The notes below the pieces were generated by a model. The model ran no database searches. It was not told where the DNA came from and saw only the letters and a program-made list of their open reading frames with translations. The position numbers and the translations under genes are program-made. A DNA stretch of 64,000 nt, taken from positions 1 to 64,000 of the IMG/VR virus record IMGVR_UViG_3300048577_000133; one strand, given 5' to 3'. The stretch is from a virus. Positions 15,840 to 54,719 of the stretch are shown here, one piece after another. The first letter of the stretch is position 1; each line of letters opens with the position of its first letter.

Positions 15840-15862
15840 TGTATTAATTTTACAAATATAAT

Positions 15863-15887
15863 GCAAATATATATATTGTATTTGTAA
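15863..15887 (-). promoter_or_regulatory. Extended early/middle promoter motif copy
   Basis: Plus strand gcaaatatatatattgtatttgtaa, which on the minus strand ends in a TAnnTTTG -7 box. Confidence 0.65.
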
Positions 15888-15909
15888 AAACGATATTCAA
15901 ATTGAATTT

Positions 15910-17559
15910 TTATAACAATTCAATGTATTTTTTTAATTTGGTTTTGTTCTTCATCAATTCTTTTATTTCGTCAGTTAAATTACCTTTTCGCCGCAAATTT
16001 CCCATAATCCGAGTATCAATTCCTGAATGAGTAAGTAAATCAATGACCAACATTGGTTTTGTTTGTCCGGGTCGGTCAATACGTCCAACCGACTGCTTTC
16101 GATTTAAATAACTAAAAGAATTAGAATAGAAAACAACTTGGCTACTTACTTCCTGAAGACCATTCAATCCGGTACCACCGCTTTGCATTGTCGCAACAAA
16201 GTAAAGGCGTTTTCTTTCGCGGAATAATTGTAATTCGTTGTCGCGATCTTTAGGGTTACGGCCTGTAAACACGGCGCAATTTTCGCGTCCTAAATAATTA
16301 ATTATTGTTTCGATTTCAAAAATGTATTTACAAAAAAACACGGTTGGTTGTGTAAAATCAAGATTTTTAAGCATTAATGGTTTGTTTGATTCCAAGATTG
16401 TTATTTTCCCATCGCGGGTTTTGTGGTACCCTGATGTGATTTGCTGCATATGTGTAAACACTTCAAAAATATCGATTGCTCTCATTTCGTCACGCTCAAT
16501 AATTGTCAATAACCGCTCCTTTTCTGCCTGATAGTATTCTTCCTGTTCGTCAGTAAGATAACAATACTTTGCCGTTTCTGTTTTAGCCGGAAGGTCTAAA
16601 ACTTCTTCTTTCGATACTTGATAAGTATAAGGTTCGAGCAATCCCATTAGTTGATCAAGATTCTTGTAACCAATTATTTCGTCGCCATTACGACCACCCA
16701 TAATTAGGTATTTTTCTTCAAACTTCAGCCAGTTACGAACTCCTATAATCAATTCCGAAAGCATTGCATACTGCATGTACAAGTTATGCACATTTTCGGT
16801 TACTGGCGTTCCTGTCATCACTACCTTGTAACTGCTTTTATCGCACACCATTTTGATCCGCTTGCTACGTTTTGCTATCGGAGTTTTCACCATGTGGCTT
16901 TCGTCAACAATAATCTGAGTTTCATTATCTGCATATTCCAAAGCTTCAAAAACGGTTTTGTCGCTTGAACTCATGCTTTCAATGCCGATCAACTTCCAAT
17001 AGATTCCGGGAGTATTGCACCATAAGTGTATTTGATCGCGGAAATTCTTTTTTGTCGATACGGGAAGGAATACCAATACCTTTTTGATTTGCCCAGCTTC
17101 GTAACGGCTCTGCACAAGGTCAATAACTATCTTACTTTTCATTGTTCCGGTATCGGCATACAAGGCTGATACCTTCATCGAACACATAAACCGGAGCGCA
17201 TCAACCTGGTGCTTTTTGCTTCGAGAATCATACACAGGAATAACGTCATCCTTCAGTCGTTCGTGAAGCGGCACTTTTTTGCGCTCCAGTTCACAATTAT
17301 TGATCAACTCGTGAAATTGACGTTCTATTTCGGCCTTGTAGTTTGCCGCTTGTTGATTATCGTAATAATTTGAATTACGGTCGTTCTCTACCCGGCAAAA
17401 CACCTGAAGGCGATCGTTAACCACCTCGAACCACGCAGCTGTTTTAATTCCTTTTCCATTTTTACCGTATGGGATATACAGCCGCCTGATGCCGTTTTTT
17501 TCTCCGGTAAACAAGCGGCTATATTTAATGCGTGATTGTATGGTTTCAAGGGTATTCAT
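15910..17559 (-). CDS. SNF2-family helicase-like protein with atypical motif I (549 aa)
   Basis: IVDESH (motif II), MTGTPVTEN (III), SGGTGLNGLQ (V) and QSVGRIDRPGQ (VI) are present. Motif I reads YADTGTMKSK instead of GxGKT. Confidence 0.75.
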   Translation of the reverse strand: MNTLETIQSRIKYSRLFTGEKNGIRRLYIPYGKNGKGIKTAAWFEVVNDRLQVFCRVENDRNSNYYDNQQAANYKAEIERQFHELINNCELERKKVPLHERLKDDVIPVYDSRSKKHQVDALRFMCSMKVSALYADTGTMKSKIVIDLVQSRYEAGQIKKVLVFLPVSTKKNFRDQIHLWCNTPGIYWKLIGIESMSSSDKTVFEALEYADNETQIIVDESHMVKTPIAKRSKRIKMVCDKSSYKVVMTGTPVTENVHNLYMQYAMLSELIIGVRNWLKFEEKYLIMGGRNGDEIIGYKNLDQLMGLLEPYTYQVSKEEVLDLPAKTETAKYCYLTDEQEEYYQAEKERLLTIIERDEMRAIDIFEVFTHMQQITSGYHKTRDGKITILESNKPLMLKNLDFTQPTVFFCKYIFEIETIINYLGRENCAVFTGRNPKDRDNELQLFRERKRLYFVATMQSGGTGLNGLQEVSSQVVFYSNSFSYLNRKQSVGRIDRPGQTKPMLVIDLLTHSGIDTRIMGNLRRKGNLTDEIKELMKNKTKLKKYIELL

Positions 17560-18047
17560 AATATAAATGATTTAGCCTCAGAATTGTTATGCACTTTGTA
17601 TATAACATAGTCTGTTTTTTTAATATATTCAATAGCCTGAATATATGGAAGAAGTTCTATTGGATGGTACCAACCATTTGGTCTTTTCTCACTAACCCAG
17701 ACGTCTGGGTTAGTGACGAACAAAAATATTCCGTGAAAATACCCATGCCACCTGATTAATTTAGGTGGATTTGATTCTATTTCACATTCTTGTTCAACAG
17801 TAGGAATACAACCATCAATTGCGATCAATTCTAACTCAGGAAATTCTTCCCCTTTCCGCATTTTGTCCCAAAAGTCAGAATCAATTCTAACTTTTTTGTG
17901 GCAATACGAACAATACGCTTTTTTTATGTGTCCTTTTTGTGACACTTCAATTATTACGTGCCCCTTTGGGTCATCACCAGGAGCCATTGTGTGATAACAA
18001 GGTTTGTAATACCTTGTTTTAAATGTTAAAGTTTTCATTTTTATCAA
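17556..18047 (-). CDS. Hypothetical Cys/His-containing protein (163 aa)
   Basis: Coupled ORF carrying CYH...CSYCH. Confidence 0.5.
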   Translation of the reverse strand: MIKMKTLTFKTRYYKPCYHTMAPGDDPKGHVIIEVSQKGHIKKAYCSYCHKKVRIDSDFWDKMRKGEEFPELELIAIDGCIPTVEQECEIESNPPKLIRWHGYFHGIFLFVTNPDVWVSEKRPNGWYHPIELLPYIQAIEYIKKTDYVIYKVHNNSEAKSFIL

Positions 18048-18613: not shown

Positions 18614-18656
18614 AATTATTTTTTCCTTTTTATTGATGTATACTTCAGTTGCTTTG

Positions 18657-18893: not shown

Positions 18894-18926
18894 CTTGTTT
18901 TTGTTTTAATATTTGTACTTTGTTCT

Positions 18927-18951
18927 GCAAATATAAATACTATATTTGTAA
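18927..18951 (-). promoter_or_regulatory. Extended early/middle promoter motif copy
   Basis: gcaaatataaatactatatttgtaa. Confidence 0.7.
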
Positions 18952-18983
18952 TTATAAGCATTTAAACACTTTTTTTTACAAAT

Positions 18984-19014
18984 AAAAACCCCAGACTCTT
19001 TTGAATCCAGGGTT
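18984..19014 (-). terminator. Probable terminator
   Basis: Minus strand AACCCTGGATTCAAAAGAGTCTGGGGTT (stem includes G-U pairs) followed by TTTATTTGT. Confidence 0.5.
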
Positions 19015-19101
19015 CTTAATCTGTGTGTGAGCGCTTTTTATGCTTATTTTTATAACTTTTTAGATATAAAAATCTCACTATTAATCTGTTGGCATAAGCG
19101 C

Positions 19102-19365: not shown

Positions 19366-19379
19366 GATTTTAAAATTTT

Positions 19380-19404
19380 CACAAATATAATGCTTATTGT
19401 TGTA
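19380..19404 (-). promoter_or_regulatory. Promoter (-7 TATATTTG, weaker extended motif)
   Basis: cacaaatataatgcttattgttgta. Confidence 0.5.
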
Positions 19405-19407
19405 TTG

Positions 19408-21523: not shown

Positions 21524-21529
21524 ACTAAA

Positions 21530-23516: not shown

Positions 23517-23541
23517 GCAAATATAAATACTATTTTTGTAA
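23517..23541 (-). promoter_or_regulatory. Extended early/middle promoter motif copy
   Basis: gcaaatataaatactatttttgtaa, about 45 nt upstream of ATG 23472. Confidence 0.75.
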
Positions 23542-23556: not shown

Positions 23557-23589
23557 AAAAAAAATACCCAGTTAATTACAACTGGGTAT
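23557..23589 (-). terminator. Rho-independent terminator
   Basis: Minus strand ATACCCAGTTGTAATTAACTGGGTAT followed by TTTTTTTT. Confidence 0.8.
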
Positions 23590-23616
23590 TGAGAAAACAA
23601 TTTACTTGACAAAATA

Positions 23617-25003: not shown

Positions 25004-25942
25004 TTACTTTGTCACTCGTTGATAGTCAAATATAATAACACGTTCTGGATTCTTTACCTCAGTAGGAGAACCCTTTCTATTACGAATCGAAAACAACAAT
25101 TTAAAAAAATCATTTGAAGGGTATTTTGTACAAAGCATTTCAATTTCTTCATCAGTAAATTTAAATTCCTTTTTCAAAATAATTCTCATTCGTTCCTGAT
25201 CTTCAGAGCTGTTAACTGGAGGAATTTCTACAACTTCATTTTGTTCTGCTTCAACAATCGATACAATCATGAATTTAACCGAAACAATATTTCGGCCCAC
25301 CTTTATAGGCTGATAGTCTATTTTGATTCCAGTCTTTTCATTTATCGTTTGTTTTGATGGTTCCAAAACACGCTTTTTAAAGTCATTGAATTCTGAATAT
25401 TTCCCTGGGTGAATCATCATTCTTGAACGAAGATCCTCAATGCTTAAAACAATAGTTTTTACCCGTTTATTCTTGATCTGACAAATTAAATCCCAAATTT
25501 CATGTACATATACGCTTTGAAATATGGAACTGCTTAAAAGCTGTTTAGTGTATTGTTTGCCATGAAGTTTGACAAAATGATTTTTTGCCATGTTGGTAAG
25601 GTAAAACCGAACACCCATGTTGTTGTGTAGAAAAACAGTCTCTCCTATCAAGCTGTCAATACTCAAACCTTCGCTGGCAATGTCAACAACCTCAATAGAT
25701 TTCATTGTTCGAAATACCTGCCTGAATTGTTCAAAATTGGTCACTGTTATACCCATAAGCTCCGATATTTCCCGAAGCTGAAAATCTATAAAATCAATAT
25801 CACTATTCAGCTTAATCTTTGTCAGGATAACATTCAAAACGTTTCGTTGGGCCGCTGTCAAATGCTTTGGACTATTTATATAATCGTTACTTTTCGCAAT
25901 GTAACGTTTTGGTTTTGGTGTGTCTAGTGTTTGTGCTTCCAT
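25004..25942 (-). CDS. Rep_3-family plasmid replication initiator
   Basis: YIAKSNDYINSPKHLTAAQRNVLNVILTKI and YSEFNDFKKRVLEPSKQTINEKTGIKIDYQPIKVGRNIVSVKF match the Rep_3 (PF01051) pattern. Iterons lie upstream. Start taken at ATG 25942. Confidence 0.85.
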   Translation of the reverse strand: MEAQTLDTPKPKRYIAKSNDYINSPKHLTAAQRNVLNVILTKIKLNSDIDFIDFQLREISELMGITVTNFEQFRQVFRTMKSIEVVDIASEGLSIDSLIGETVFLHNNMGVRFYLTNMAKNHFVKLHGKQYTKQLLSSSIFQSVYVHEIWDLICQIKNKRVKTIVLSIEDLRSRMMIHPGKYSEFNDFKKRVLEPSKQTINEKTGIKIDYQPIKVGRNIVSVKFMIVSIVEAEQNEVVEIPPVNSSEDQERMRIILKKEFKFTDEEIEMLCTKYPSNDFFKLLFSIRNRKGSPTEVKNPERVIIFDYQRVTK

Positions 25943-25996
25943 GAGTGTAATTTTAACAAATACATTTCTAATAATCAATTGTATTTTATTAACATG

Positions 25997-26024
25997 CAAC
26001 AAATATGCAATTACAATTTTGTGA
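25997..26024 (-). promoter_or_regulatory. Degenerate copy of the promoter motif upstream of rep
   Basis: caacaaatatgcaattacaattttgtga. Confidence 0.4.
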
Positions 26025-26074
26025 TTATTCTCTTTTTTCTCTTACCAATCGGGCAATTCAAAGAATTTAAATCA

Positions 26075-26341
26075 ATGTAAAGTGTCCGGCCATTTATGTA
26101 TTCTGTCCGGCTATTATTTTGTTAATTATACTTATTTATTTTATTTTGTCTTAAAAATCAACGTTTTGAGAAATAAAAAAAGATATTAACAAGTTAAAAA
26201 TCATGTAAAAATGGTGTTTATGTAGATTGTCCGGTTTCGCATGTAAAATGTCCGCTCTTCGCATGTAAAGTGTCCGGTTGTCAAATGTAATCCGTCCGGC
26301 TATTAATGTAAATTGTCCGGTTATTAATGTAAATTGTCCGG
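26075..26341. repeat. Iteron array (8 copies of ATGTAAAnTGTCCGG) flanking an AT-rich segment: putative oriV
   Basis: Copies start at 26075, 26096, 26220, 26241, 26263, 26285, 26306 and 26327 (21-22 bp phasing). AT-rich stretch at 26111-26219. Confidence 0.85.
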
Positions 26342-26447
26342 TTATGCCCTTTCAGATATTTATAAATCAATCTGTTACGACGCTGAAAATATTATAAAAT
26401 AAAAGAAAATAAGAAAAAAAAGAAATACGGAAAAACCTAAAAACATT

Positions 26448-26771
26448 TTATTTCTGGGTCTTTTTAAACCCCAAAACAGCCTTTTGTAACTCATCCTGAT
26501 CAAGTTTGTTCAAGTAGTCACTAAACGCCTTTTCTGCAATATCTTTTTCTTTTGTCCGTGTGTACCATGCCCAAGCTTCAATTATATCACCTAATTCTGA
26601 GTCCATCAGGAACGTTTTGCGGTAATATCCTTTATCTCCCTTTAGCTTTTTGTTCTCGGATTGTCTTTTAACGCCAAAACTCAAAAAAGAGGCCGTTTCT
26701 GGTTTTGTTTCTTCTGGTTGAATATTGCCGGTAATGAGACTTGATAAGCCTGAAAAGTTTTTCTTTGCCAT
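26448..26771 (-). CDS. Putative RHH centromere-binding partner of ParA (ParG-like, 107 aa)
   Basis: Immediately downstream of parA. YYRKTFLMDSELGDIIEAWAWYTRTKEKDIAEKAFSDYL resembles a ribbon-helix-helix. Confidence 0.5.
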   Translation of the reverse strand: MAKKNFSGLSSLITGNIQPEETKPETASFLSFGVKRQSENKKLKGDKGYYRKTFLMDSELGDIIEAWAWYTRTKEKDIAEKAFSDYLNKLDQDELQKAVLGFKKTQK

Positions 26772-26783
26772 TTCGCCGAATGT

Positions 26784-27554
26784 TTACACGTTTACATGAT
26801 TAATTGATTTACTTAAAACAAGGTTTACGAATTCGCTGTAATCCTTTGCCCCATTGCTTTCTGGCGCATATTCAAAAATAGATTTTTTTTGTGTTATCGC
26901 TTCGCTTATCGCAATATTCCTGCGGATCATGCTCGAAAAAACCCTGTCACCATATTGCTCTTTCAGGATATTTATAATGTCCCGGTTTAAAACTGTACCC
27001 TGGGTCATGGTTAAAAGAATCCCTGAAATGTCAATCGTACTGTCCGACATTTCCCTGATGAGAGCCAATACATCAGAAAGCTTTGCCAATCCTTTGTATG
27101 GCAGCAATTCTGCTTGCATAGGTACATAAACCTCATTCGACGCAATAAGAGCATTTAGTGTGAGAACACCAAGCGACGGCGGGCAATCAATCAAAACAAA
27201 GTCAAAACCGTCTATCTTTTGCAGGATCTTCTTCAGAACTAAATCCCTCGAAGGAATTGAATTCATTTCCGTTTCGGCCCCTGCCAGATCAATCGAACTG
27301 GGCAGGATGAAAAGATTTTCAGTTACTTTTAACGGGGTCGGGTTCTTTGCCTTCATGGTCATGTAGTGATACATGTTTTTGCCTTCAATTGTGCTGCTTT
27401 CAGAAATTTCAAGGCTATCAGTTAAGTTGGCCTGAGCATCCATATCAACCAGTAAAACTTTCTTCCCGGCATTGGCCAAACCATAACCCAGGTTAAGGGT
27501 TGTAGTTGTCTTTCCGGTACCGCCCTTGTGCTGGGCAATGCTAATTACTTTCAT
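26784..27554 (-). CDS. parA: ParA-family partition ATPase
   Basis: Deviant Walker A KGGTGKTTTTLNLG, DMDAQANLT and VLIDCPPSLG. Confidence 0.9.
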   Translation of the reverse strand: MKVISIAQHKGGTGKTTTTLNLGYGLANAGKKVLLVDMDAQANLTDSLEISESSTIEGKNMYHYMTMKAKNPTPLKVTENLFILPSSIDLAGAETEMNSIPSRDLVLKKILQKIDGFDFVLIDCPPSLGVLTLNALIASNEVYVPMQAELLPYKGLAKLSDVLALIREMSDSTIDISGILLTMTQGTVLNRDIINILKEQYGDRVFSSMIRRNIAISEAITQKKSIFEYAPESNGAKDYSEFVNLVLSKSINHVNV

Positions 27555-27581
27555 GTTTTAGTGTGTAAAGTGTGTTTATAA

Positions 27582-27767
27582 TTAATTAGAAATAATCCTT
27601 TCTGATAAGCATGTATTAATCCAATTTATAATTGCTTCTTTTGTTTTATCGTATCCTGCTATTCCTTCACCTTTTTGCATTATTTCAATTACATTTTTTT
27701 CGCTTTCCGTTAAATAACTAACGGTAATTCCATATATAGTATATTGATTGTTTTTTTTATTTTCCAT
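27582..27767 (-). CDS. Hypothetical protein (61 aa from ATG 27767)
   Basis: Small ORF upstream of parA. Confidence 0.4.
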   Translation of the reverse strand: MENKKNNQYTIYGITVSYLTESEKNVIEIMQKGEGIAGYDKTKEAIINWINTCLSERIISN

Positions 27768-27879
27768 TTGCTTTATAAAATTCAAAGTCGCTTTCTGATA
27801 AGTGTTCTTTCATCCATTCCTCCATCCCTATATCACGCCTTTCGTTGACATTACTTTCATTTTAGTGTGTTTCTGTGTG

Positions 27880-28461
27880 TTATTCTACTTTTATAATTTC
27901 AAGACCCTCGTAATAAAACCGTTGCACTGAACCATGTTGATCGTAAGCAATCAGAGGCTTATCATCATTAATCCATTTTCTTCTAACTGTATAAACAGTG
28001 TCGTTAAATTTGAATTTATCATTTTTATGCAATGATTCTAATGTCGTTTTACTTTCTATTTGAATAATGTTTGTAATTTCCGGTGATTGTCCTTTTCTTT
28101 CAATTCTACCTTTGCATTGATCTTCCTGTACTTGTTGAATCTTTATCGATAATTCTATATTTTGCTTTGCTTCTTTTCCGTAAAGTTCAACCGCTTTTTC
28201 AATGATAAGAGCCTGAGTTGCATAAGACATTTTTGAGTAAAACGCATCGTAAAATTCAGTATGCTTAACGGTAGCCATCCAACCACTTTGTTTACTTCTT
28301 TCCAGAGCAACTTCTTCTAGTTCTTTCCATACATGAGCAAATTCGCTACTCTGCGAGATCAAATCATGAATGTCATTCGATCTGAAGTTGTACAGAAAAA
28401 GACCTAGCGATCTTGTAATAACCAAGCTTTCTAAGTTACGTTTAATTGATTCCGACTTCAT
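27880..28461 (-). CDS. Hypothetical protein (193 aa)
   Basis: ORF preceded by a promoter motif plus an AAACAC-repeat leader. Confidence 0.5.
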   Translation of the reverse strand: MKSESIKRNLESLVITRSLGLFLYNFRSNDIHDLISQSSEFAHVWKELEEVALERSKQSGWMATVKHTEFYDAFYSKMSYATQALIIEKAVELYGKEAKQNIELSIKIQQVQEDQCKGRIERKGQSPEITNIIQIESKTTLESLHKNDKFKFNDTVYTVRRKWINDDKPLIAYDQHGSVQRFYYEGLEIIKVE

Positions 28462-28506
28462 TGTGTTTTAGTGTTTATGTGTTTCAGTGTTTACATTAAT
28501 GAAGCA

Positions 28507-28530
28507 CGAATATAAACACTATTTTTGTAA
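28507..28530 (-). promoter_or_regulatory. Extended early/middle promoter motif copy
   Basis: cgaatataaacactatttttgtaa. Confidence 0.7.
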
Positions 28531-30680: not shown

Positions 30681-30703
30681 ACAAATATAGAAATTAGTTT
30701 GCA
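30681..30703 (-). promoter_or_regulatory. Promoter (-7 TATATTTG with TTTG 19 nt upstream)
   Basis: acaaatatagaaattagtttgca; overlaps palindrome GTTTGCATACAGCAAAC. Confidence 0.6.
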
Positions 30704-30750
30704 TACAGCAAACAAAAAGAATAAAAATATTAGTCAAAGCAAACTTTTTT

Positions 30751-32911: not shown

Positions 32912-32937
32912 GGTGTTTACTTGTTTGAGTGTTTACA

Positions 32938-33198
32938 TTAATAACATAAATCACACATTCCAAATCTGTTGATGTGATTAAATTTCACTTTCAAACCAAT
33001 CTCTTTAACCACATCTTTCAAAAACTTTACTGCATCAATCATTCTGTTACAGTCAAAATCTTCACAAACTTCCATTGTCTTTTTATCTACAATGATCATA
33101 GTGTCAACATTTGCGAAATAGTTTGAACTTTTAACCTTAATTGCAAACCTTAATTCGTTTACCGGGATAACTGATGTGTTAAATTTTTTAGCTGCCAT
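32938..33198 (-). CDS. Hypothetical protein (86 aa from ATG 33198)
   Basis: The track N-terminus MYYKNSIYICR is the translated promoter motif; the real start is MAAKKFNT. Confidence 0.5.
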   Translation of the reverse strand: MAAKKFNTSVIPVNELRFAIKVKSSNYFANVDTMIIVDKKTMEVCEDFDCNRMIDAVKFLKDVVKEIGLKVKFNHINRFGMCDLCY

Positions 33199-33233
33199 TG
33201 TGTTTATGTGTTTTAGTGTTTCAGTGTTTACAC

Positions 33234-33259
33234 GACAAATATAAATACTATTTTTGTAA
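33234..33259 (-). promoter_or_regulatory. Extended early/middle promoter motif copy
   Basis: gacaaatataaatactatttttgtaa, with TTTG about 18 nt upstream of the -7 box on the minus strand. Confidence 0.75.
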
Positions 33260-33287: not shown

Positions 33288-33319
33288 ATAAAAAAAACCG
33301 GACTAATTCTAATCCGGTT
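33288..33319 (-). terminator. Rho-independent terminator
   Basis: Minus strand AACCGGATTAGAATTAGTCCGGTT followed by TTTTTTTTATTTG. Confidence 0.8.
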
Positions 33320-33421
33320 TAATGGCTATTGTTGGGTGTACATCTGTTTAACTCATTTCAATTCCTAAAAGGTTCGATTGTAATTACACCCCAGTAAGTA
33401 TCTAAATAATTTTAAACATAA

Positions 33422-33841: not shown

Positions 33842-33959
33842 CGCTTAGTTTTTTACTTCATCAACGCCTATCCGGTTGTATTTCCCAGAAAACAGAATCG
33901 CCCATTTCGAACTGTACTTTTCTGCCTTATCGGCGTTGACTTTTTCTTAATAAAGGTTG

Positions 33960-34048
33960 TGGAACCGGAAGGATTCGAACCTTCGCCTTATGCACTGACT
34001 AAGTCAGATATTACGAGAACGCACCTTAAAAATTATTTTCACAGTTCC
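33960..34048 (-). tRNA. tRNA-like element 1 (89 nt), anticodon arm not foldable by eye
   Basis: Acceptor GGAACTG/CGGTTCC (one G-U pair) and canonical T arm GAAGG-TTCGAAT-CCTTC. An internal CTGAC-TTA-GTCAG hairpin and an A/T-only D region make it non-canonical. Confidence 0.4.
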
Positions 34049-34139: not shown

Positions 34140-34228
34140 TGCCTGATACTGGATTTAAACCAGTATCCTTTTCCCTCCGGGGAAACATTTCGGTGTAAAA
34201 GCCACTCTATCAATTGAGCTAATCAGGC
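34140..34228 (-). tRNA. tRNA-like element 2 (89 nt) with long variable arm, degenerate anticodon arm
   Basis: Perfect acceptor GCCTGAT/ATCAGGC, D arm GCTC-AATTGATA-GAGT, variable hairpin TTTCCC-CGGA-GGGAAA and T arm ACTGG-TTTAAAT-CCAGT. The anticodon region GCTTTTACACCGAAATG pairs at only 3 bp. Confidence 0.4.
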
Positions 34229-36678: not shown

Positions 36679-36704
36679 TACAAATATATGTATTGTATTT
36701 GTAA
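36679..36704 (-). promoter_or_regulatory. Extended early/middle promoter motif copy
   Basis: tacaaatatatgtattgtatttgtaa. Confidence 0.65.
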
Positions 36705-39312: not shown

Positions 39313-39331
39313 TCTATAAAATTGTTCGGTG

Positions 39332-39485
39332 TGTTCAGTGAACAATTTAAACCAAAAAGCCGAAAGGCGAGTTTTTTACTTTTCCCACTCTTTCGGCTTT
39401 TATCTACTGTGATGTGTGTCAATGATTTACATTGTTCACTTTTGTTCACTCAAAATTGTTCACTCTGTTCTTCTCTGTGTTCACT
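39332..39485. promoter_or_regulatory. Cluster of TGTTCACT motifs (4 direct copies plus palindrome TGTTCAGTGAACA) upstream of terS
   Basis: Direct copies at 39433, 39443, 39457 and 39478. Palindrome at 39332-39344, 20 nt upstream of ATG 39312. Confidence 0.5.
39354..39398 (-). terminator. Possible terminator (long-loop hairpin)
   Basis: AGCCGAAAG-N23-CTTTCGGCT followed on the minus strand by TTTTTGGTTT. Confidence 0.45.
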
Positions 39486-44235: not shown

Positions 44236-44270
44236 GCTATTACAAAAATAGTGTTTATTTTTGTAATAGC
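44236..44270. promoter_or_regulatory. Perfect 15-bp inverted repeat (5-bp spacer) combining a terminator hairpin and a promoter motif
   Basis: GCTATTACAAAAATA-gtgtt-TATTTTTGTAATAGC. The minus strand is followed by TTTTTTATTT. The right arm is the TATTTTTGTAA half of the promoter motif. Confidence 0.7.
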
Positions 44271-44294: not shown

Positions 44295-44831
44295 CTAAAT
44301 ATTTTGTTGCTTTAAAATTTCAACTTTTTCATATTTTTCTTTAAGTTTTGTTATTCTGCTGTCAAGTTTAGATTCGTTTGAAATTTCAAGTGTTGTTTTT
44401 ATTTTACCATTTAGCAAAAGAAACAATCGAACTCCAGAAGTTGGATTATTTCTTACAATTGGTTGTTCGGAATGAGTAAACTCTTCTGACCATTTTTTTT
44501 CTCTTGCTGCTTTCTTTTTGCGTTCTTCAAGCAATTGTTTTAGTTGTTTTTTTCGCGCAAGAACTTTTTTACCTTCCTCAATAAACCCAAAAATTGAACA
44601 CGCCTGAACCTTACGGCCCCTTTTACCAGCTTGTTTAATTCTTGTGTCCTTATTTTTTTTCTTCAGATTCAAAGATTTTAAATACTTTCTTATCGAATCT
44701 GATGTTCGTCCCATTTCAATAGATAATTCATTGAATGTTTTATCTTTATAATTAGCTCTCAAATATTCTTCTTCCAAAGAACTCCAAGGTTTATATTTAT
44801 TGATACATTCCATATTGCTAGAATAAATCAA
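44295..44831 (-). CDS. Hypothetical basic protein, possible Myb/SANT-like HTH (178 aa)
   Basis: WSSLEEEYLRANYKDKTFNELSIEMGRTSDSIRKYL. Confidence 0.5.
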   Translation of the reverse strand: MIYSSNMECINKYKPWSSLEEEYLRANYKDKTFNELSIEMGRTSDSIRKYLKSLNLKKKNKDTRIKQAGKRGRKVQACSIFGFIEEGKKVLARKKQLKQLLEERKKKAAREKKWSEEFTHSEQPIVRNNPTSGVRLFLLLNGKIKTTLEISNESKLDSRITKLKEKYEKVEILKQQNI

Positions 44832-46332
44832 TTTCTAAATTTACGCCAAATTGCTCATTAATCTCATTAAGCAATTTAGCTGTATCAATAGCAAAATCAC
44901 CAGCAATTGAAGTTACAATTTCAAATGATTCACTATTTACTTGTAATCCTTTTAGCATGAAAGCCTGTAGCGTAAATTCGAGCTCTTTAATCGTTTTATC
45001 TCCTGCATTTTTAATGTTGTGATAAACAGTATTAATACAAGCAATCCGATCATTTAATTGATCTTCATCAATTGTTGTATAATTTGGAGCTGTCATCCAA
45101 TTCCTTGCTTCTGCAATTTCAATCCTGTCAGAAAGTGGTAATGCAAGAAACAAACTGATAACGTTTGCAATTCGAAAACCTCTCGGAATACCATTAAATT
45201 CGTTAATAGTAACCTCGCGAACTACGTTTCCAAGCAAATCATTTACAAATTTTATTTTCGCTTCTTTAAGGGGTTTTGCATCAGGATTTTGTTTTTCAAT
45301 TTGTTTTTCTCCCTGTAGCAATTTAACTTCTTTGTTGTATTCATTGCGCTGATCATCAGAAAGAATATCAACATACCGGCCAACTTTGCCAAAACTGTCA
45401 ACGATCAATGCAATTGACTGCCTGGTATGATTCTTTACTGCCTCTTTGGGAATTTGAATAAATTCTGAAAGTAACCGGACGCCTTTTTCTTGCCGGTCTT
45501 TTTCAGACAACCACCTGTCAGATACTTTTATTACTTCAACACCAAGACCTTCCCAACTTTTTTTAAGGCTTTCAATGTGATTGACAACTTTAGACTGATA
45601 ACAATTTTTGTCAAAACAAATATCTGAAGCCTCATATCCTTCAAAAAGCCTGTTTGTGCTACCTGATCTTTTTGTACAATCAGTACAAGCCCCGGCACCT
45701 AAAAGCAATGATTCATCATTTACCATAAAAGGAGCATTTGCAAGTTTTAAATTAAAATGCTTTTTAATTAACTCCCTTAGTTCATTTAATGAAAATCCAT
45801 CTCCCCACATTTCAAAAAGTTCTTTTTGATCAGTTGGTGTTAATCTGATTAATTCCTTTGCGTGCGAAACCTGAAGAATTCCATCCTGTAGCTTATTTAC
45901 AAATTCAGGAATTAGCAAACTTAAATTAATACGATCGTAGACATATTTTAATGACCGCCCAATACGGTCCGATAATTCTTCAATTGTAAATCCACGATCT
46001 TTTAATTCCAGCAAAGCTTGCATTTCTTCATAGGCAGTAAGATCACGCCTCTGAATGTTTTCTGTAAGATGAATAATTGTTTCTTCATGCTCAGTAAGAT
46101 TTTCAAAAACCTTTGCATCGATCGTCTTCATTTTATTGACTACGCAGGCTCTTAATCTACGCTCTCCATACAGTAAGCGGTACTTTTTACCATCTGGAAT
46201 GATTCCAATCGGTTGGATAAGACCTACTGATTTGATACTGGCTGCAAGCTCCTGAATCGCTTCAGGGATAAATAACTTTCGAGAATTGTTAGGTACAACA
46301 ATTTCATTAATACTGATTTTCTTCAGTTCCAT
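44818..46332 (-). CDS. Large ParB-domain protein (504 aa from ATG 46332)
   Basis: ISINEIVVPNNSRK...ELAASIKSVGLIQPIGII...YRLLYGERRLRA. Confidence 0.7.
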   Translation of the reverse strand: MELKKISINEIVVPNNSRKLFIPEAIQELAASIKSVGLIQPIGIIPDGKKYRLLYGERRLRACVVNKMKTIDAKVFENLTEHEETIIHLTENIQRRDLTAYEEMQALLELKDRGFTIEELSDRIGRSLKYVYDRINLSLLIPEFVNKLQDGILQVSHAKELIRLTPTDQKELFEMWGDGFSLNELRELIKKHFNLKLANAPFMVNDESLLLGAGACTDCTKRSGSTNRLFEGYEASDICFDKNCYQSKVVNHIESLKKSWEGLGVEVIKVSDRWLSEKDRQEKGVRLLSEFIQIPKEAVKNHTRQSIALIVDSFGKVGRYVDILSDDQRNEYNKEVKLLQGEKQIEKQNPDAKPLKEAKIKFVNDLLGNVVREVTINEFNGIPRGFRIANVISLFLALPLSDRIEIAEARNWMTAPNYTTIDEDQLNDRIACINTVYHNIKNAGDKTIKELEFTLQAFMLKGLQVNSESFEIVTSIAGDFAIDTAKLLNEINEQFGVNLEIDLF

Positions 46333-46367
46333 ATTTTCCGGTTTTAGTGTAAATTTTATATTTGAAT

Positions 46368-46444
46368 ATATGTATAACATATACTGCAAAAGTGGAATAC
46401 ACGGCTAAAAGTGGAAAATATTTCCGCATTTAAGCCGCATTTAA
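46368..46444. repeat. Palindrome plus two pairs of direct repeats upstream of the ParB-like gene
   Basis: ATATGT-ATA-ACATAT (46368-46382); AAAAGTGGAA at 46388 and 46407; CCGCATTTAA at 46424 and 46435. Confidence 0.6.
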
Positions 46445-46468: not shown

Positions 46469-46496
46469 AAAAAAAAGGATGAATAATTATCCATCC
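46469..46496 (-). terminator. Rho-independent terminator
   Basis: Minus strand GGATGGATAATTATTCATCC followed by TTTTTTTT. Confidence 0.8.
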
Positions 46497-47235: not shown

Positions 47236-47709
47236 TTATATGCCATAAACCAAAAGCGCAGCATCGCGAACATGCTGACTGGTTCGTGTTTTTACTTTTG
47301 TAATACGCTCAAATGCTGTTTTATCAAGCTTAGTCATTGAACCTGATGTTGGCTTCCGCTTCACTACTTTTATCCCTGCTCTTTCACAAAAATCTATCAT
47401 CAAGTTTGATTTGTCCATCACTTTGCCAACATTGATCCCTTGTTTGGCTACTGCTCTTACTTTACCGGAATGATCTGCCTTTGTTGAATTGTAGGTGTTT
47501 TCTGGTCCAAATACGGCTTTATTTGATTCAACGTCCTCAATGTGAACTTCAAGATTAATTGTTTGGCCGCATGAAAATTGATATTTTTTTATCTGTTCAA
47601 TTGCATCCCAAAATGTCACCGTCGACAATTCGATAAAAGCTTTTTTACCTGAATGCCAAACAGCAAAACCCGTGTGTTCACCTCCATCTATCCCGATACA
47701 TATTTTCAT
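47236..47709 (-). CDS. RuvC-like Holliday junction resolvase (157 aa)
   Basis: N-terminal MKICIGIDGGEHTGFAVW is an RNase H-fold start. Sits in a recombination-gene context. Confidence 0.5.
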   Translation of the reverse strand: MKICIGIDGGEHTGFAVWHSGKKAFIELSTVTFWDAIEQIKKYQFSCGQTINLEVHIEDVESNKAVFGPENTYNSTKADHSGKVRAVAKQGINVGKVMDKSNLMIDFCERAGIKVVKRKPTSGSMTKLDKTAFERITKVKTRTSQHVRDAALLVYGI

Positions 47710-47713: not shown

Positions 47714-47737
47714 GCAAATATAATAACTATTTTTGTG
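47714..47737 (-). promoter_or_regulatory. Extended early/middle promoter motif copy
   Basis: gcaaatataataactatttttgtg. Confidence 0.7.
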
Positions 47738-51941: not shown

Positions 51942-51963
51942 TTGTGTAAAATTTTAATGTGTG

Positions 51964-52233: not shown

Positions 52234-52260
52234 GATGTAGTGTTTTAATGTTATATCTCG

Positions 52261-52284
52261 ACAAATATAACTACTATATTTGTA
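52261..52284 (-). promoter_or_regulatory. Extended early/middle promoter motif copy
   Basis: acaaatataactactatatttgta. Confidence 0.7.
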
Positions 52285-52299
52285 TTTCAAACAAAATAA

Positions 52300-54408
52300 C
52301 TAAAATAATTGCAAAGTTTTTGTTTCACTGTTTACATGATTAAATGATTTAGATTTTAATACCTCGTATTCAGGAATTTCAGCGTTGTCCGATTTTAAAT
52401 TGCTTCCAACGATAAGCTTTGTCAAATCATCAACCATGTTGGTTTCAATTTCTCCACTACTACCGGTGGCTGCTTTACCTGCCTGTCGTTTTGCATCGAT
52501 AATACTGTACATGTGATCATCAACCGTATCGCGGCCTAATAAGTAATAAATATTTACCATGTCTTTTTGTCCAATACGGTGAATCCTGTCCTCTGCCTGA
52601 TCTTCCATCGCTGCCGTCCAGCTCAATTCAAGCTTTACCATTTTTGAGGCCGCTGTCAAAGTGTGGCCGGCATATCCCTTTTTATAGCTACAAACGATAA
52701 TACGGTACTTTTCATCGTTCTGGAACAACTTTTTATTCTTGTCAATTTCTTCCGGGGTATTGTCGCCGTATATGGTCAAAACATTCGGGAATAATTCTTT
52801 TATCTTATTGATAGTGTTCTTGTACCAACAGAAAACCACCAGTTTTTCATGTTCAATAATTCTACCTGCAAAGTCCTTGAATGCTTCAAATTTTCCCTCA
52901 GAACTTATCTGAGCCAATACCCTGAACCTGGAAAGAAGTTCAGCTCTCATACTTGATGCGATATTTTCCGGATCAACTTTTTGACTTGCTAAATAATCCT
53001 GAAGCGATATAAACGCGTGATCGTACTCGGCCCTGTTGGATATGTCGATGTGAATAATCTGTCTTAATTTATCAGGTAAATCTTTTAATACCTGGAATTT
53101 TTCACGTCTTATAAAACATAGCGAACGCAATTTAATGTTCAGCGCGGCCAGATCGGAATTTCCTGAGTTGTTATTTCCACTGTCGAAATAGCCTTTCTTC
53201 ATATCTTTAGCGGCTTTCACAAATCTATACATACCTCCGAACTCATCAATTCTATTTGATAGTTCGAGCAATGAAGCAATGTCCTGAGCGGTGTTAACAA
53301 ACGGCGTTCCAGTTAGCGGAAATACATGCTTTTTACCCTTTGTTACCGCTCTGACGGTTTTGTATCTTACTGTTTTGTGGTTCCTCAATTCATGAGCTTC
53401 GTCAATAATCACACACTTGAATATCTCGTGCATTTTGTTCATGATTACCGACTTCCTTACCTTTCCTTTATTTGCTCCTTCCTTTATCTCAACCTCTTTA
53501 ACTTCATCACAAAAAAGCGTTTTAACTCCATCATAGTTAATAATAGCAAAATCGCACATGCCTAAATTCACAAAGTTTTCAAGGCTCTTTATGTTTTTCT
53601 GATTAAGCAACAACGGTTTTTTGTTTGTGAATTTCTTCACTTCGTCGTACCAGTTACCCATAAGCGATTTTGGACATATAACCAATACCGGAAAAGCATT
53701 TAACCCATAAGCTGCGCCTATGCCTTGAATGGTCTTGCCTAGTCCCATATCATCAGCATTGATACACGATTCGTTTTTCATCATGTAGTCAATACCTGAA
53801 CTCTGAAATGGAAAAGGTTTTAGTTTAAAAGGTATGTTCAATTCTATTTCTTCAGCACTATATGAAGCTTCGTAGTTATTTTCAATCCCGTTGAACATGC
53901 GTTGTGCCGACGAACCAATATTGAAATTGTTCTTTTCGGCAAATGCCTTTAGTTCTTTTGTTGAAGTCAACGGAAAAAACCACTGTTTTGAATCAGGCGA
54001 ATATTTTCCATCCGGTACCGCTTTCACCTGTGCAACCAACAAGCTGCTGTATGAAAACTCGACAATGTATTTTTCGCCATTGTAAGCAACCGATTTTGAA
54101 ACTTGATTATGGAATTGCTGATAACTCTGAGTCTGTGCAGCAAGTTTAACCGGTGGAACGGTGCTAAATTCAAATCCAACTCTTTTAAGTATCGTTGAAT
54201 ATCCTTTTAGGTAGTTGTATAGCCTGAAAGCCTCCTGCTCGGTCATAACCGGGTTATGCCTTACCTTCTTTAAAAATTTTGCTGTGTTTTCTGAAAGTGA
54301 ACTAACAGAAAGAATGTTGCGTTCAAAAAGGTTTCTGTACGCCTCCAGTGCTTTTCTTAACTCCCGGTGTGTAACGGTTGTGTAAGTCGTTTGTGTGTTT
54401 TGTTCCAT
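52300..54408 (-). CDS. SNF2-family helicase (702 aa)
   Basis: DDMGLGKTIQ, IIDEAHELRN, LTGTPFVN and QAEDRIHRIGQ. Confidence 0.9.
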   Translation of the reverse strand: MEQNTQTTYTTVTHRELRKALEAYRNLFERNILSVSSLSENTAKFLKKVRHNPVMTEQEAFRLYNYLKGYSTILKRVGFEFSTVPPVKLAAQTQSYQQFHNQVSKSVAYNGEKYIVEFSYSSLLVAQVKAVPDGKYSPDSKQWFFPLTSTKELKAFAEKNNFNIGSSAQRMFNGIENNYEASYSAEEIELNIPFKLKPFPFQSSGIDYMMKNESCINADDMGLGKTIQGIGAAYGLNAFPVLVICPKSLMGNWYDEVKKFTNKKPLLLNQKNIKSLENFVNLGMCDFAIINYDGVKTLFCDEVKEVEIKEGANKGKVRKSVIMNKMHEIFKCVIIDEAHELRNHKTVRYKTVRAVTKGKKHVFPLTGTPFVNTAQDIASLLELSNRIDEFGGMYRFVKAAKDMKKGYFDSGNNNSGNSDLAALNIKLRSLCFIRREKFQVLKDLPDKLRQIIHIDISNRAEYDHAFISLQDYLASQKVDPENIASSMRAELLSRFRVLAQISSEGKFEAFKDFAGRIIEHEKLVVFCWYKNTINKIKELFPNVLTIYGDNTPEEIDKNKKLFQNDEKYRIIVCSYKKGYAGHTLTAASKMVKLELSWTAAMEDQAEDRIHRIGQKDMVNIYYLLGRDTVDDHMYSIIDAKRQAGKAATGSSGEIETNMVDDLTKLIVGSNLKSDNAEIPEYEVLKSKSFNHVNSETKTLQLF

Positions 54409-54691
54409 CTTCTTTATTTTCCGAAAAAAATACTTTTATCCTCTCTGGTGTGTTTGAAATGTAAACTTTCAAATCTGCATCTTTACGATTAGTAATTATC
54501 CAAACGTTTGTTGCTGTTTCATACTTATTTTTTGAAATAAATATGATGTAATTTGCAATAGCTCTGTTACTTGTATTATTTACACAAATATCAGCATCAG
54601 CGCGATTTTTGACAAAACAAACTTTTGTTGCCTGAACTTTTAAGGATAAAAGTATAAAAATGATTATTGTGAATAATTTATATGCACTCAT
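54323..54691 (-). CDS. Small secreted protein with internal NR-x-DAD repeats (122 aa from ATG 54691)
   Basis: Signal peptide MSAYKLFTIIIFILLSLKVQA. Repeats KNRADADICV and TNRKDADLKVY. The 3' end overlaps the SNF2 start by 86 nt. Confidence 0.5.
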   Translation of the reverse strand: MSAYKLFTIIIFILLSLKVQATKVCFVKNRADADICVNNTSNRAIANYIIFISKNKYETATNVWIITNRKDADLKVYISNTPERIKVFFSENKEDGTKHTNDLHNRYTPGVKKSTGGVQKPF

Positions 54692-54695
54692 AATT

Positions 54696-54719
54696 GCAAA
54701 TATAGTATTTATTTTTGTG
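54696..54719 (-). promoter_or_regulatory. Extended early/middle promoter motif copy
   Basis: gcaaatatagtatttatttttgtg. Confidence 0.7.

Follow-up and report, generated by a model that had tools for sequence, protein, structure and literature searches.

In an uncultured, tailed, Bacteroidota-infecting phage with a genome of about 72 kb, ten or eleven replication and maintenance operons begin with one and the same element, apparently an on/off switch that they share. Is this element a promoter only, or does it also serve as the site of a regulatory protein? Phage control elements of its kind are familiar. All scans of the phage cover a window of 64,000 nt of the ~71.8-kb genome, the remaining 7.8 kb of which lie beyond it.

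A repeated intergenic element

On the minus (coding) strand, the element has the 23-bp consensus TACAAAWATA-N5-TATWTTTG. PWM, dyad and repeat searches confirmed ten strong sites and one degenerate site, spanning 15.8-54.7 kb of the window (Table 1), and a repeat search recovered the family de novo. The literal 25-mer with at most three mismatches matches five times in the window versus never in 100 shuffles, and the strict dyad CAAAWATA-N5-TATWTTTG occurs seven times. The ten strong sites, which formed the PWM training set, score 24-33 bits. The independently scored site 19382 reaches 19.6 bits, against best scores in the shuffle null (n=100) with a mean of 12.4 and an extreme of 20.6 bits, and is a probable family member. 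The initial annotation had counted at least 13 copies. Two of its candidates, 25997 and 30681, were rejected, as they score below 8 bits in gene orientation and have only the TATATTTG / CATATTTG box in common with the family; the count is eleven.

Genomic context analysis of the window revealed that all eleven sites are intergenic, with intergenic DNA making up 8% of the window (P about 9e-13), and that each stands just upstream of the first gene of an operon. Counted from the G that ends TTTG, the ATG follows after 5, 5, 16, 24, 28, 34, 37, 38, 40, 45 and 45 nt, a wider range than the 30-50 nt first proposed. The reported absence from structural modules held: a PWM scan of 1-15.8 kb and 54.8-64 kb found no copy, the best hits of 8-12 bits lying within the null. 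These motif-free flanks hold the head genes on one side and the genes for tail, baseplate and endolysin on the other. An early/middle temporal class of promoters is nevertheless unproven, the assignment coming from gene content. Within the motif-bearing region itself, other sequences precede the ParB-like/HTH operon, the Rep gene and the operon that joins a 310-aa gene to the large terminase; thus the motif marks a regulon rather than a whole region. Coding regions are free of the element. Both strands match at each site because the element is a dyad, and 44243 even scores higher on the plus strand. These data demonstrate a real family of intergenic elements 5' of first genes, which combine a -7 box with a dyad at fixed spacing.

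Table 1. Element copies and associated features in the window (promoter assignments are predicted)
Feature	Position	Strand	Site details	Operon
Dyad promoter copy CACAAAAATAAATACTATATTTG	54697..54719	-	ATG of DUF6150 membrane protein (54323-54691) 5 nt past G	DUF6150 membrane protein, then 702-aa helicase; first operon past late-gene terminator 54748-54776
Dyad promoter copy TACAAATATAGTAGTTATATTTG	52262..52284	-	dyad 8/8 perfect; -33 TTTG at 18 nt	89-aa gene, AAA_24 ATPase, DnaD-like replication protein
Dyad promoter copy CACAAAAATAGTTATTATATTTG	47715..47737	-	ATG of RuvC-like resolvase (47236-47709) 5 nt past G	
Candidate regulator operon	44295..46380	-	by inference only	
ParB/Spo0J/Noc-family protein	44818-46380	-	ParB_N + HTH_ParB domains	
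172-aa protein	44295-44813	-	predicted N-terminal three-helix HTH-like domain + long helix	
Dyad promoter copy TACAAAAATAAACACTATTTTTG	44243..44265	-	-33 TTTG at 19 nt	SMC-like ATPase, SSB, further genes
Extended perfect palindrome (15+5+15) GCTATTACAAAAATA-AACAC-TATTTTTGTAATAGC, then TTTTTTATTT	44236..44270	-	-16.4 kcal/mol	
Dyad promoter copy TACAAATACAATACATATATTTG	36681..36703	-	directly past terminase large-subunit stop codon	small ORFs + N6/N4 methyltransferase
Dyad promoter copy TACAAAAATAGTATTTATATTTG	33236..33258	-	behind terminator 33290-33320; A/C-rich leader 33199-33231 follows	last gene = 528-aa methyltransferase
Dyad promoter copy TACAAAAATAGTGTTTATATTCG	28507..28529	-	deviant -7 box, TTCG end; leader same as 33236	includes ParA (26784-27554)
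Dyad promoter copy TACAAAAATAGTATTTATATTTG, exact consensus	23518..23540	-	behind terminator 23557-23590	583-aa DNA methyltransferase + HNH endonuclease genes
Degenerate copy TACAACAATAAGCATTATATTTG	19382..19404	-	19.6 bits, dyad 6/8	87-aa gene 16 nt downstream
Dyad promoter copy TACAAATATAGTATTTATATTTG	18928..18950	-	dyad 8/8 perfect; behind terminator 18984-19012	last gene = 549-aa helicase
Dyad promoter copy TACAAATACAATATATATATTTG	15864..15886	-	extra half-site TATATTTGTA 11 nt downstream (15851-15860)	67-aa ORF + IbrA/IbrB-like pair; final operon before head genes

Predicted promoter function

The 3' arm of the element is the Bacteroidota -7 box TAnnTTTG (TATATTTG) on the coding strand. 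Intergenic DNA, 8% of the window, holds 17 of the 45 minus-strand TAnnTTTG boxes, and the element sites supply 11 of the 17. As in Bacteroidota sigma-A promoters (-33 TTTG / -7 TAnnTTTG), this box would lie a few nucleotides before the inferred start, leaders are A-rich and lack a Shine-Dalgarno sequence (an SD-like 4-mer precedes only 13 of 85 genes, and leaders throughout the genome are G-poor), and a 22-mer of the element is found mainly at Bacteroidota gene starts. In contrast to those promoters, only three of the eleven sites (33236, 44243 and 52262), or four counting CTTG at 36681, have a canonical -33 TTTG, spaced by 17-21 nt, and what the phage conserves instead is a 10-nt mirror image of the -7 box within the spacer. 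Accordingly, of the Bacteroides-type promoter originally proposed, the -7 half stands by sequence logic, and the -33 TTTG does not belong to the conserved unit. Sigma-70-type promoters show no excess in the genome. Intrinsic terminators lie directly upstream of four sites (18928, 23518, 33236 and 54697).

Given these features, the elements are very probably promoters. We infer that the host (Bacteroidota) RNA polymerase would read all eleven, each heading one non-structural operon for functions such as helicases, resolvase, SSB, methyltransferases, HNH nucleases or the ParA operon. Transcription would be expected to start about 5-7 nt past the G of the -7 box, yielding A/C-rich leaders of 16-45 nt at nine sites; the mRNAs from the remaining two would be leaderless. 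At these two, genes with family matches from or near residue 1 start 5 nt past the box. The match of the RuvC-like resolvase begins at residue 1, so its start codon is taken as real and the mRNA from 47715 as leaderless-type; the ATG at 54697 has the same position. Together they imply that both mRNAs would be leaderless or nearly so.

Dyad symmetry and a possible operator

The palindrome suspected earlier is stronger than claimed: C3..A10 mirrors T16..G23, with 6-8 of the 8 positions complementary at every site. The arms are spaced by exactly 5 bp in all eleven phage copies and in all three copies of the only close relative (L124, 84% identical), where the 36681 site is kept at the same place (7692). 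The 5-bp centre and the flanks vary between copies, and both arms are conserved. The information profile is symmetric, with a dip at W7/W19 (non-complementary in five of the ten strong sites), and the upstream arm is conserved as strongly as the -7 box, which bears out the conservation noted beyond that box. A 5-bp gap is not generally favoured: in a viral contig sample, 6 of 116 dyads with arms 0-12 bp apart have it, and 0.86 Mb of mostly Bacteroidota DNA contain a single case, against seven of the overlapping type (spacing -2), the commonest there.

The best reading of the palindrome is an operator, a role that the initial annotation had already suggested and that we regard as a tentative but realistic possibility. 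The -7 box would double as one half of the 21-bp dyad, centred near -16, and the dyad would be bound by a putative dimeric DNA-binding protein. Such a protein on -26 to -6 would exclude polymerase and switch all operons together; it may serve to turn them off once the replication phase is over, or to keep them silent in a carrier state resembling a plasmid. The combined model, a co-regulated family of host-polymerase promoters with the -7 box inside a dyad operator, has in our judgement close to an even chance. Weighing against the operator, a single ancestral unit may have given rise to all copies, which would then not be independent observations.

The leading rival to the operator reading is somewhat unlikely in our view. 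It takes the element for two back-to-back -7 boxes, one TAnnTTTG per strand and 5 bp apart, from which polymerase would start both ways. In this one-strand genome, a reverse start would produce short RNAs antisense to the 3' end of the operon that comes before; their role could be to insulate operons or just to help the promoter open. A full plus-strand TAnnTTTG is present at eight of the ten strong sites, which make up eight of the ten intergenic plus-strand boxes. Symmetric two-way promoters are frequent among bacteria, with an enrichment in horizontally acquired DNA (bioRxiv 10.1101/2020.01.31.928960), and the phage element likewise carries its core on both strands around a symmetry centre (bioRxiv 10.1101/2020.01.31.928960; PMC12825309). 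The initial annotation had not considered that, read on the opposite strand, the upstream arm is a -7 box too, and Bacteroidota genomes use such an arm in this way. The same 22-mer stands between divergent genes in bacterial genomes (Bacteroidota in 57 of 80 titles among the matches listed, 71%). A downstream gene start is found at 65% of these sites vs 34% of random positions, clustering at 4-5 nt, which counts for promoter function as such. A reverse ORF is found at 53% vs 34% in controls, and both directions at 38%; for 22 reverse ATGs the distance to the arm is only 4-8 nt. There, the 22-mer serves divergent, often leaderless genes. Since the upstream arm works as a -7 box in host genomes, the dyad could be explained without a regulator.

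However, plus-strand genes are absent throughout the non-structural block of the phage. At two sites the mirrored box reads TG instead of TA, which would break a reverse -7 box and yet is a tolerable operator mismatch. The predicted divergent starts are about 32 bp apart with separate, non-overlapping boxes, whereas in described bidirectional promoters the -10 elements overlap and the starts are separated by 7-25 bp, mostly 18 (bioRxiv 10.1101/2020.01.31.928960). The prevalence of overlapping arrangements in the mostly Bacteroidota DNA also speaks against it, as does the gap of 5 bp, invariant in 14 of 14 copies and unneeded by independent boxes. Finally, the reverse box is absent from the relatives' promoters.

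Promoter reuse in relatives and hairpin folding

Those relatives bear on another explanation, a strong promoter read by polymerase alone, whose 23-bp unit, sometimes with a leader of ~45 nt, was copied before exchangeable gene cassettes; its symmetry would be a by-product of common descent and of an A-tract spacer facing a T-rich -7 box. Distant relatives have other lineage-specific extended promoters, some with palindromes of their own, a point counted for the operator. In L130, L131/L126/L128 and L132, a 40-45-bp promoter particular to each, AAAAAGTT..AAATTTTGGTA..AAAATTT..TATCTTTG, recurs in 4-7 copies per 21 kb, nearly identical within a genome and also placed before portal and head genes. 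An A-tract 7-12 nt before the -7 box is common to all lineages. A-tract/CAAAA stands at about this spacer position even in the relatives' promoters, which look unrelated, so the upstream arm may be partly polymerase-intrinsic, a point against the operator. Promoter and leader are conserved among 33236, 28507 and L124:9367, followed by unrelated ORFs. Furthermore, the terminase-portal interval is 24 kb in this phage and short in relatives, which fits cassette gain at promoter joints. T4-type phages gain promoter-early-stem-loop (PeSL) cassettes at such joints, and in T4 early promoters, PeSL cassettes and T7 promoter families an extended promoter is reused before many small exchangeable genes. 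The phage resembles these in its conserved promoter and leader with differing cargo, and differs in its unit of 23 bp (about 75 bp with leader), which is dyad-symmetric and host-type, and in having a stem-loop partner only at 44243. Against this explanation, the arms stayed fixed while spacer centre and flanks diverged, so each arm is under selection by itself. That the invariant C3 and ATA of the upstream arm mirror G23 and TAT is left unexplained by an A-tract. Other -7 promoters of the same phage (30682, 13798 and 9152) lack the arm, which is thus unneeded by polymerase. We consider a polymerase-only element unlikely.

The symmetry could also act as a hairpin or cruciform in RNA or single-stranded DNA, such as a terminator, a processing site or an N4-type hairpin promoter. 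At 44243 there is indeed a hairpin with a 15-bp stem and a T-run, and two compensatory changes keep the outer stem of its L124 ortholog; 44236-44270 is a predicted intrinsic terminator of the ParB-like/HTH operon, overlapping the 44243 promoter. The other ten sites fold at -0.3 to -5.7 kcal/mol, most inside the shuffle range; the two or three sites with a perfect dyad (18928, 52262, and 36681) lie 1.5-1.7 SD below shuffles, still only at -3.8 to -5.7 kcal/mol. None of these ten has a T-run, and the mismatch at 7/19 further interrupts the stem in half of the strong sites. A giant virion RNA polymerase gene is absent from the window, where the largest ORF has 798 aa. With weak folding and no T-run, hairpin function was rejected at 10 of 11 sites, and as a general account of the family it is extremely improbable.

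Candidate regulators

Returning to the operator reading, both the regulator and the direction in which it would act are hypothetical. The sole insulated motif-free operon of the block encodes two DNA-binding-type proteins, which was counted for an operator; it has its own upstream repeats and terminators on both sides (46469-46496 and 44236-44270). The ParB-like protein has a GERR motif and matches Spo0J with E 6e-26, above the TIGR00180 cut-off. AlphaFold modelled the 172-aa protein with modest confidence, and a Foldseek search with the model returned nothing significant. Pfam/PHROG scans of nearly all genes revealed no classical repressor (CI/Cro-type HTH), sigma factor or integrase. These candidates are guesses.

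As a special case of the operator reading, the dyads might be dispersed centromere- or KorB-like sites of the phage's ParB-family CTPase, which with ParA would partition a plasmid-like prophage and also silence adjacent promoters. The phage encodes a bona fide ParB together with ParA, a Rep_3 initiator and iterons, contains no canonical parS, and has its best palindrome just 3' of the parB-like operon. To our knowledge, ParB-family sites are contiguous palindromes of 13-16 bp, in contrast to the 8+5+8 architecture here. A precedent is the ParB-family CTPase KorB of RK2, which silences promoters and whose binding sites are the palindromic OB operators (core TTTAGCGGCTAAA, contiguous) (PMC11790492). 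Yet every phage site holds one fixed position over the -7 box, a temperate lifestyle is unsupported, and other repeats, at 46.40-46.44 kb, precede the parB-like gene and may be the true site of ParB. Dispersed ParB sites are therefore very unlikely in our assessment.

Comparison with replicon-wide control systems

Like RK2 and P1, the phage carries Rep, ParA and ParB-type genes. In phage P1, C1 operators are repeated over the replicon and one regulator switches operons together; C1 sites are asymmetric, unlike the symmetric phage dyad. Mycobacteriophage stoperators are oriented with transcription and located within operons. As far as the cited accounts describe them, stoperators are many copies of one repressor site with lineage-specific sequence, asymmetric, monomer-bound, distributed genome-wide and able to stop elongation (PMC9283540, PMC6550527); the phage sites are likewise numerous across the genome, but symmetric and at promoters only. 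The KorB/KorA operators of RK2 are short sites in about ten or more copies per replicon, at replication and maintenance promoters that one regulator switches jointly (PMC11790492), a part that would fall to a putative protein in the phage. KorB sites are contiguous palindromes at variable promoter distance, whereas the phage has a spaced dyad that always overlaps the -7 box.

A symmetric, probable promoter element recurs at operon starts

Sequence analysis revealed that a 23-bp minus-strand element, TACAAAWATA-N5-TATWTTTG, whose 3' arm is the -7 box and whose 5' arm is its mirror image, recurs in the non-structural block. A repeat search without any prior motif recovered the family de novo, the literal 25-mer has five matches at three or fewer mismatches compared with none in shuffles, and the strict dyad CAAAWATA-N5-TATWTTTG occurs seven times. 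Aligned on TTTG, ten strong sites yield TACAAAWATA-N5-TATATTTG, and a PWM built from them retrieved one more independent site, 19382, at 19.6 bits. The existence of the motif, proposed in the initial annotation, is thus borne out, and the intergenic placement of all 11 sites (P about 9e-13), together with the shuffles, excludes chance or a low-complexity artefact. Two copies listed in that annotation, at 25997 and 30681, have nothing but the -7 box in common with the family, and the distance to the start codon, given there as 30–50 nt, was measured as 5–45 nt to the first ATG. The claimed absence from the structural modules holds, as no PWM score in the head or tail/lysis modules rose above the shuffle range. 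The element marks the replication, recombination, modification and ParA operons, and none is found at structural or lysis genes; it is also missing from the ParB-like operon, the Rep gene, and the operon of a 310-aa gene and the terminase. It therefore defines a concrete regulon, in which eleven putative promoters of nearly the same sequence each contain a symmetric site; the phage also has plasmid replication and partition genes.

Positions of the gene modules, the plasmid-type module and the element sites
Feature	Position	Strand	Remark
Major capsid protein, protease, portal (head genes)	2.7-12.8 kb	-	
Baseplate, tail-fibre, endolysin genes	54.9-64 kb	-	
Non-structural block	54.7-15.9 kb	-	
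Rep_3/RepM-RepE-like initiator	25004-25942		Module within 25004-28461
6-7 iterons CCGGACAnTTTACAT	about 26050-26341		Precede Rep_3 initiator
ParA	26784-27554		With 107-aa partner
Element sites (left coordinates)	15864, 18928, 19382 (degenerate), 23518, 28507, 33236, 36681, 44243, 47715, 52262, 54697	-	

Genome content and host

All sizeable ORFs in the window lie on the minus strand. Products of the non-structural block include three DNA methyltransferases, HNH nucleases, two SF2-type helicases, a RuvC-like resolvase, an SSB, a DnaD-like protein, and ATPases of the AAA_24 and SMC-like types. The block also contains a plasmid-type module of a Rep_3 initiator with iterons and ParA, which in a tailed phage suggests a phage-plasmid lifestyle. 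The capsid protein is identical to one on a 71,820-bp JGI contig, and its relatives at 37%–50% identity are found on contigs of about 64–76 kb, one of them in a Crocinitomicaceae MAG. Megablast against public phage records returned no close relatives, tblastn gave only portal matches at 22%–30%, and no close cultured phage was found. A Bacteroidota host is supported by the A-rich, G-poor leaders, by an SD-like 4-mer in only 13 of 85 genes, and by sigma-70-type promoters showing no excess over shuffles. On the coding strand, 17 of 45 TAnnTTTG boxes fall within the intergenic 8% of the sequence.

The element as a probable Bacteroidota promoter

The -7 element TAnnTTTG is present on the gene strand at 10 of the 11 sites, the exception being 28507 with TATATTCG. 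A -33 TTTG is located 17–21 nt before the -7 box at three sites only (18, 19, and 18 nt), and a fourth has CTTG. Given that the -33 element is the weaker of the two Bacteroidota promoter elements, its absence does not exclude promoter function. As a result, the conserved unit consists of the spacer arm and the -7 box, and not of the -33 and -7 elements; the extended conservation noted initially is retained for the spacer arm and abandoned for the -33 TTTG. For two genes the start codon lies 5 nt after the box, namely that of the RuvC-like resolvase, which is matched by its family from residue 1 onward, and that of a DUF6150 membrane protein; this points to leaderless mRNAs with a start site where the -7 box predicts it. 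These two ATGs and a 4–8-nt cluster in host genomes lend indirect support to a putative transcription start a few nucleotides past the box, which would be used by the host holoenzyme. Terminators directly 5' of 54697, 33236, 23518 and 18928 further indicate that the elements open transcription units. Gene starts could be refined, as several N-termini proved false and two genes leaderless, and the operon map for this uncultured phage group is improved.

Possible roles of the upstream arm

Residues C3–A10 mirror T16–G23 around position 13, and 6–8 of the 8 mirrored positions are complementary at every site, so that the motif first described as partly palindromic proves to be a true dyad. Its information profile is symmetric, the weak W7/W19 position included. 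The downstream arm, almost always TATATTTG, is the -7 box itself, and the dyad thus overlaps the core promoter element; the upstream arm reads on the opposite strand as TATTTTTG in six sites, TATATTTG in two and TGTATTTG in two. We tentatively favour the possibility that the upstream arm would make the dyad an operator, the ParB/KorB-like special case considered below included. This reading is supported by the dyad symmetry and by the half-site spacing, which is fixed at 5 bp in 14 of 14 copies, including those of the close relative L124, despite divergence of the centre and flanks. No general preference for such spacing was seen: among 116 dyads from a viral sample only 6 have it, and 0.86 Mb of mostly Bacteroidota DNA yielded a single case, the overlapping arrangement being commonest there. 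A reverse -7 box would be destroyed by the TG variants, which were also counted for an operator.

Alternatively, the upstream arm may be a second -7 box, such that both directions fire. TAnnTTTG is indeed present on the plus strand as well at 8 of the 10 strong sites, and bacterial genomes contain at least 120 stretches that match the 22-mer ACAAAWATARTNNTTATATTTG, 57 of 80 being from Bacteroidota among the matches listed. At these matches a gene start lies past the downstream arm in 65% and past the upstream arm, on the other strand, in 53%, compared with 34% at random positions, and many ATGs are 4–8 nt from either arm; gene starts beyond either arm suggest that both can act as -7 boxes. However, the block has no plus-strand genes, and the promoters of related phages are devoid of a reverse box. 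Moreover, some 32 bp would separate the predicted divergent starts, and the boxes do not overlap but are separated by 5 bp, whereas in the described cases the elements overlap and the starts are 7–25 bp apart. We thus regard bidirectional firing as rather unlikely. Symmetric promoters firing both ways are described for other bacteria (bioRxiv 10.1101/2020.01.31.928960), and our search found no paper on bidirectional promoters in Bacteroidota. If the reverse box fires, this idea would be extended to the Bacteroidota -7-type promoters.

Among the Bacteroidota genome matches (L177–L296), back-to-back -7 boxes are often located between divergent genes, with ATGs 4–8 nt from the boxes; the commonest divergent arrangement in the 0.86 Mb is the overlapping CAAAnnTAnnTTTG. 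This hints that symmetric, leaderless bidirectional promoters are widespread in Bacteroidota.

It is quite improbable that the arm is a polymerase-intrinsic spacer element kept by common descent. An A-tract does occupy the same spacer position in all lineages, but it leaves the invariant C3 and ATA, mirroring G23 and TAT, unexplained, and other -7 promoters in the same phage have no upstream arm.

Folded as single strands, ten sites gave energies between -0.3 and -5.7 kcal/mol, mostly inside the shuffle range and no more than 1.7 SD beneath it, and none has a T-run; half the sites also have a non-complementary W7/W19. A hairpin, terminator or N4-type promoter is thus ruled out at 10 of the 11 sites. 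At the remaining site, 44243, the palindrome extends to 15+5+15 bp (44236–44270) with a T-run and a folding energy of -16.4 kcal/mol, and is also flagged by the terminator scan. In the L124 ortholog the outer stem is maintained via two compensatory changes (GCTAT/ATAGC to GCCAC/GTGGC). Site 44243 therefore most likely combines the terminator of the upstream operon with the promoter of the next one.

Candidate regulators

Scans against Pfam and PHROGs, covering nearly all window genes, and against NCBIfam revealed no CI/Cro-type repressor, sigma factor or integrase. The putative regulators of the favoured operator, which are leads and not findings, comprise a ParB-HTH protein, a 172-aa HTH-like protein and the small ParA partner (107 aa). 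Encoded at 44818–46380, apart from the Rep_3/ParA module, the ParB/Spo0J-family protein has ParB_N and HTH_ParB domains and a GERR motif, and its TIGR00180 score of 88.8 bits exceeds the 58.45 cut-off. In the model of the 172-aa protein (mean pLDDT 69), an N-terminal domain of three helices is predicted with confidence and followed by a helix of 58 residues, the rest being modest; the protein has no Foldseek match at E<=0.001, and its homologues are found only in the L124-type phage. The element is missing from the operon of these two proteins, which carries repeats of its own and is set off by terminators, a layout that a regulator operon would be expected to have. Ahead of the ParB-family gene, the segment 46381–46470 contains two copies each of TAAATGCGG and TTCCACTTTTRSC and an imperfect palindrome, CGGCTTAAATGCGGAAATATTTTCCACTTTTAGCCG, with no TAnnTTTG box; these repeats may be the ParB protein's own site.

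In the special case, one 21-bp sequence would double as the -7 box and as the loading or binding site of a ParB-family CTPase, perhaps with the HTH protein, for genome-wide silencing in a carrier state. We consider this very unlikely. Canonical parS is absent from the window (one match at three mismatches versus 3.9 expected), and the 8+5+8 architecture differs from parS and from any contiguous 13–16-bp palindrome such as parS, NBS or OB. Were it true, a ParB-type protein would free the replication/recombination operons for lytic growth, and a tailed phage would have acquired a global switch of the KorB type.

The reuse of one extended promoter is a classical feature of phages, and in P1 and phiC31 single operators are repeated across the replicon; to our knowledge, almost nothing is known about gene timing in Bacteroidota phages. 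Single operators repeated across a replicon are also described for RK2, with KorB/KorA (PMC11790492), and for mycobacteriophages, with stoperators (PMC9283540, PMC6550527). The stoperator is asymmetric, of 13–14 bp, in one orientation and inside transcription units, whereas the present element is symmetric and confined to operon starts. The twist beside the known systems is the -7 box embedded in the dyad; no paper on repeated promoter-operator units in Bacteroidota phages was found. If a regulator binds the dyad, it would offer a simple handle to switch a whole Bacteroidota phage programme, and a compact, portable promoter-operator part for Bacteroidota genetics.

Conservation among related phages

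The element is present at three places in L124, the only close relative, whose terminase is 84% identical. Two of these copies, one following the terminase gene and one preceding the SMC-like ATPase gene, are orthologous, and the promoter and leader of the third (9367) match those of 33236. This last pair shares the promoter and roughly 45 nt of A/C-rich leader, but the ORFs that follow are unrelated. Compared with the window copies, the arms in L124 are unchanged, and the centre and flanks differ. Motif searches of IMG/VR and bacterial genomes gave single-copy matches per contig and no second genome with the family besides L124. The more distant relatives (terminase about 40%–47% identical) have no element, and each reuses its own extended promoter, indicating that the reuse of one promoter many times is a trait of the whole phage group. 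In L130, L131/L126/L128 and L132 it is a 40–45-bp unit of canonical -33 TTTG, A-tract and TATCTTTG, found in 4–7 copies per 21 kb and also just before portal and head genes. L125 has a GTTTGCATAT..GCAAAC palindrome across the -33 region. Terminase and portal genes are close in the relatives, separated by a few promoter-led cassettes at most, and 24 kb apart in the window; judged from these sequences, the intervening block has evidently grown by promoter-led cassettes.

Other control regions and minor observations

Between promoter and ATG, an A/C-rich leader, TAAACAYTGAAACACTAAAACA, is repeated at 28462–28494, 33199–33231 and 32913–32951 in the window and at 9390–9437 in L124. Reused before unrelated ORFs, it is probably a Bacteroidota-style translation initiation region.

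A second palindrome type is found as TTTGCATAT-T-ATATGCAAA at 12817–12835, 10 nt before the portal ATG, as GTTTGC-TGTAT-GCAAAC at 30698–30712, 8 nt before the TATATTTG box at 30682, and over the -33 region of two L125 promoters (3460–3480, 5375–5400). No conserved palindrome was found before the portal gene in the relatives, and the head and tail intergenic regions share no late-promoter motif beyond terminator tails.

The 310-aa gene/terminase operon has its own terminator and GTGAACAA repeats. Five GTGAACAA/TTGTTCAC repeats at 39327–39463, conserved in L124 (4910–5075), flank this strong terminator (39354–39400) ahead of the genes for the 310-aa protein and the large terminase; a packaging (pac/TerS) site is one possible function of these repeats, separate control of the operon another.

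The final operon ahead of the head genes encodes an IbrA/IbrB-like pair (13847–15636), namely a PAPS-reductase + DUF3440 protein and a ParB_N-only protein, with homologues in L131 and L132. Elsewhere, pairs of this kind carry annotations as prophage-gene co-activators, and a role in late-gene control is conceivable.

Three 258-nt tandem repeats, 79%–83% identical, at 14–787 belong to a tail-fibre-like reading frame running off the window start, and six 15-nt repeats at 4926–5045 lie in a 91-aa gene after the capsid gene. In L123, a 6.9-kb contig from JGI sample 3300048578, about 31 bp are missing at the 5' end of the DUF4352 gene (8586–9125; window 9108–9138); as the rest of the contig is 99.9%–100% identical to the window, this gap is a population indel.

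The Rfam DUF805b RNA motif at 13687–13721 on the minus strand (47.7 bits, E 1.8e-10) sits in a long leader, 3' of a TATCTTTG -7 box at 13798 and 5' of a 63-aa membrane-like ORF. Rfam also identified a minus-strand tRNA at 34140–34228 (41.4 bits), missed by ARAGORN, in which the 17-nt anticodon region is replaced by a 33-nt insert. Directly 3' of it, a second tRNA/tmRNA-like fragment with a GGTTCGAATCC T-loop is found at 33957–34048. Right after the endolysin stop, a TATATTTG box at 54842–54849 is followed about 65 nt on by a strong terminator (54748–54776); the two could delimit a small RNA of about 90 nt, or coincide by chance.
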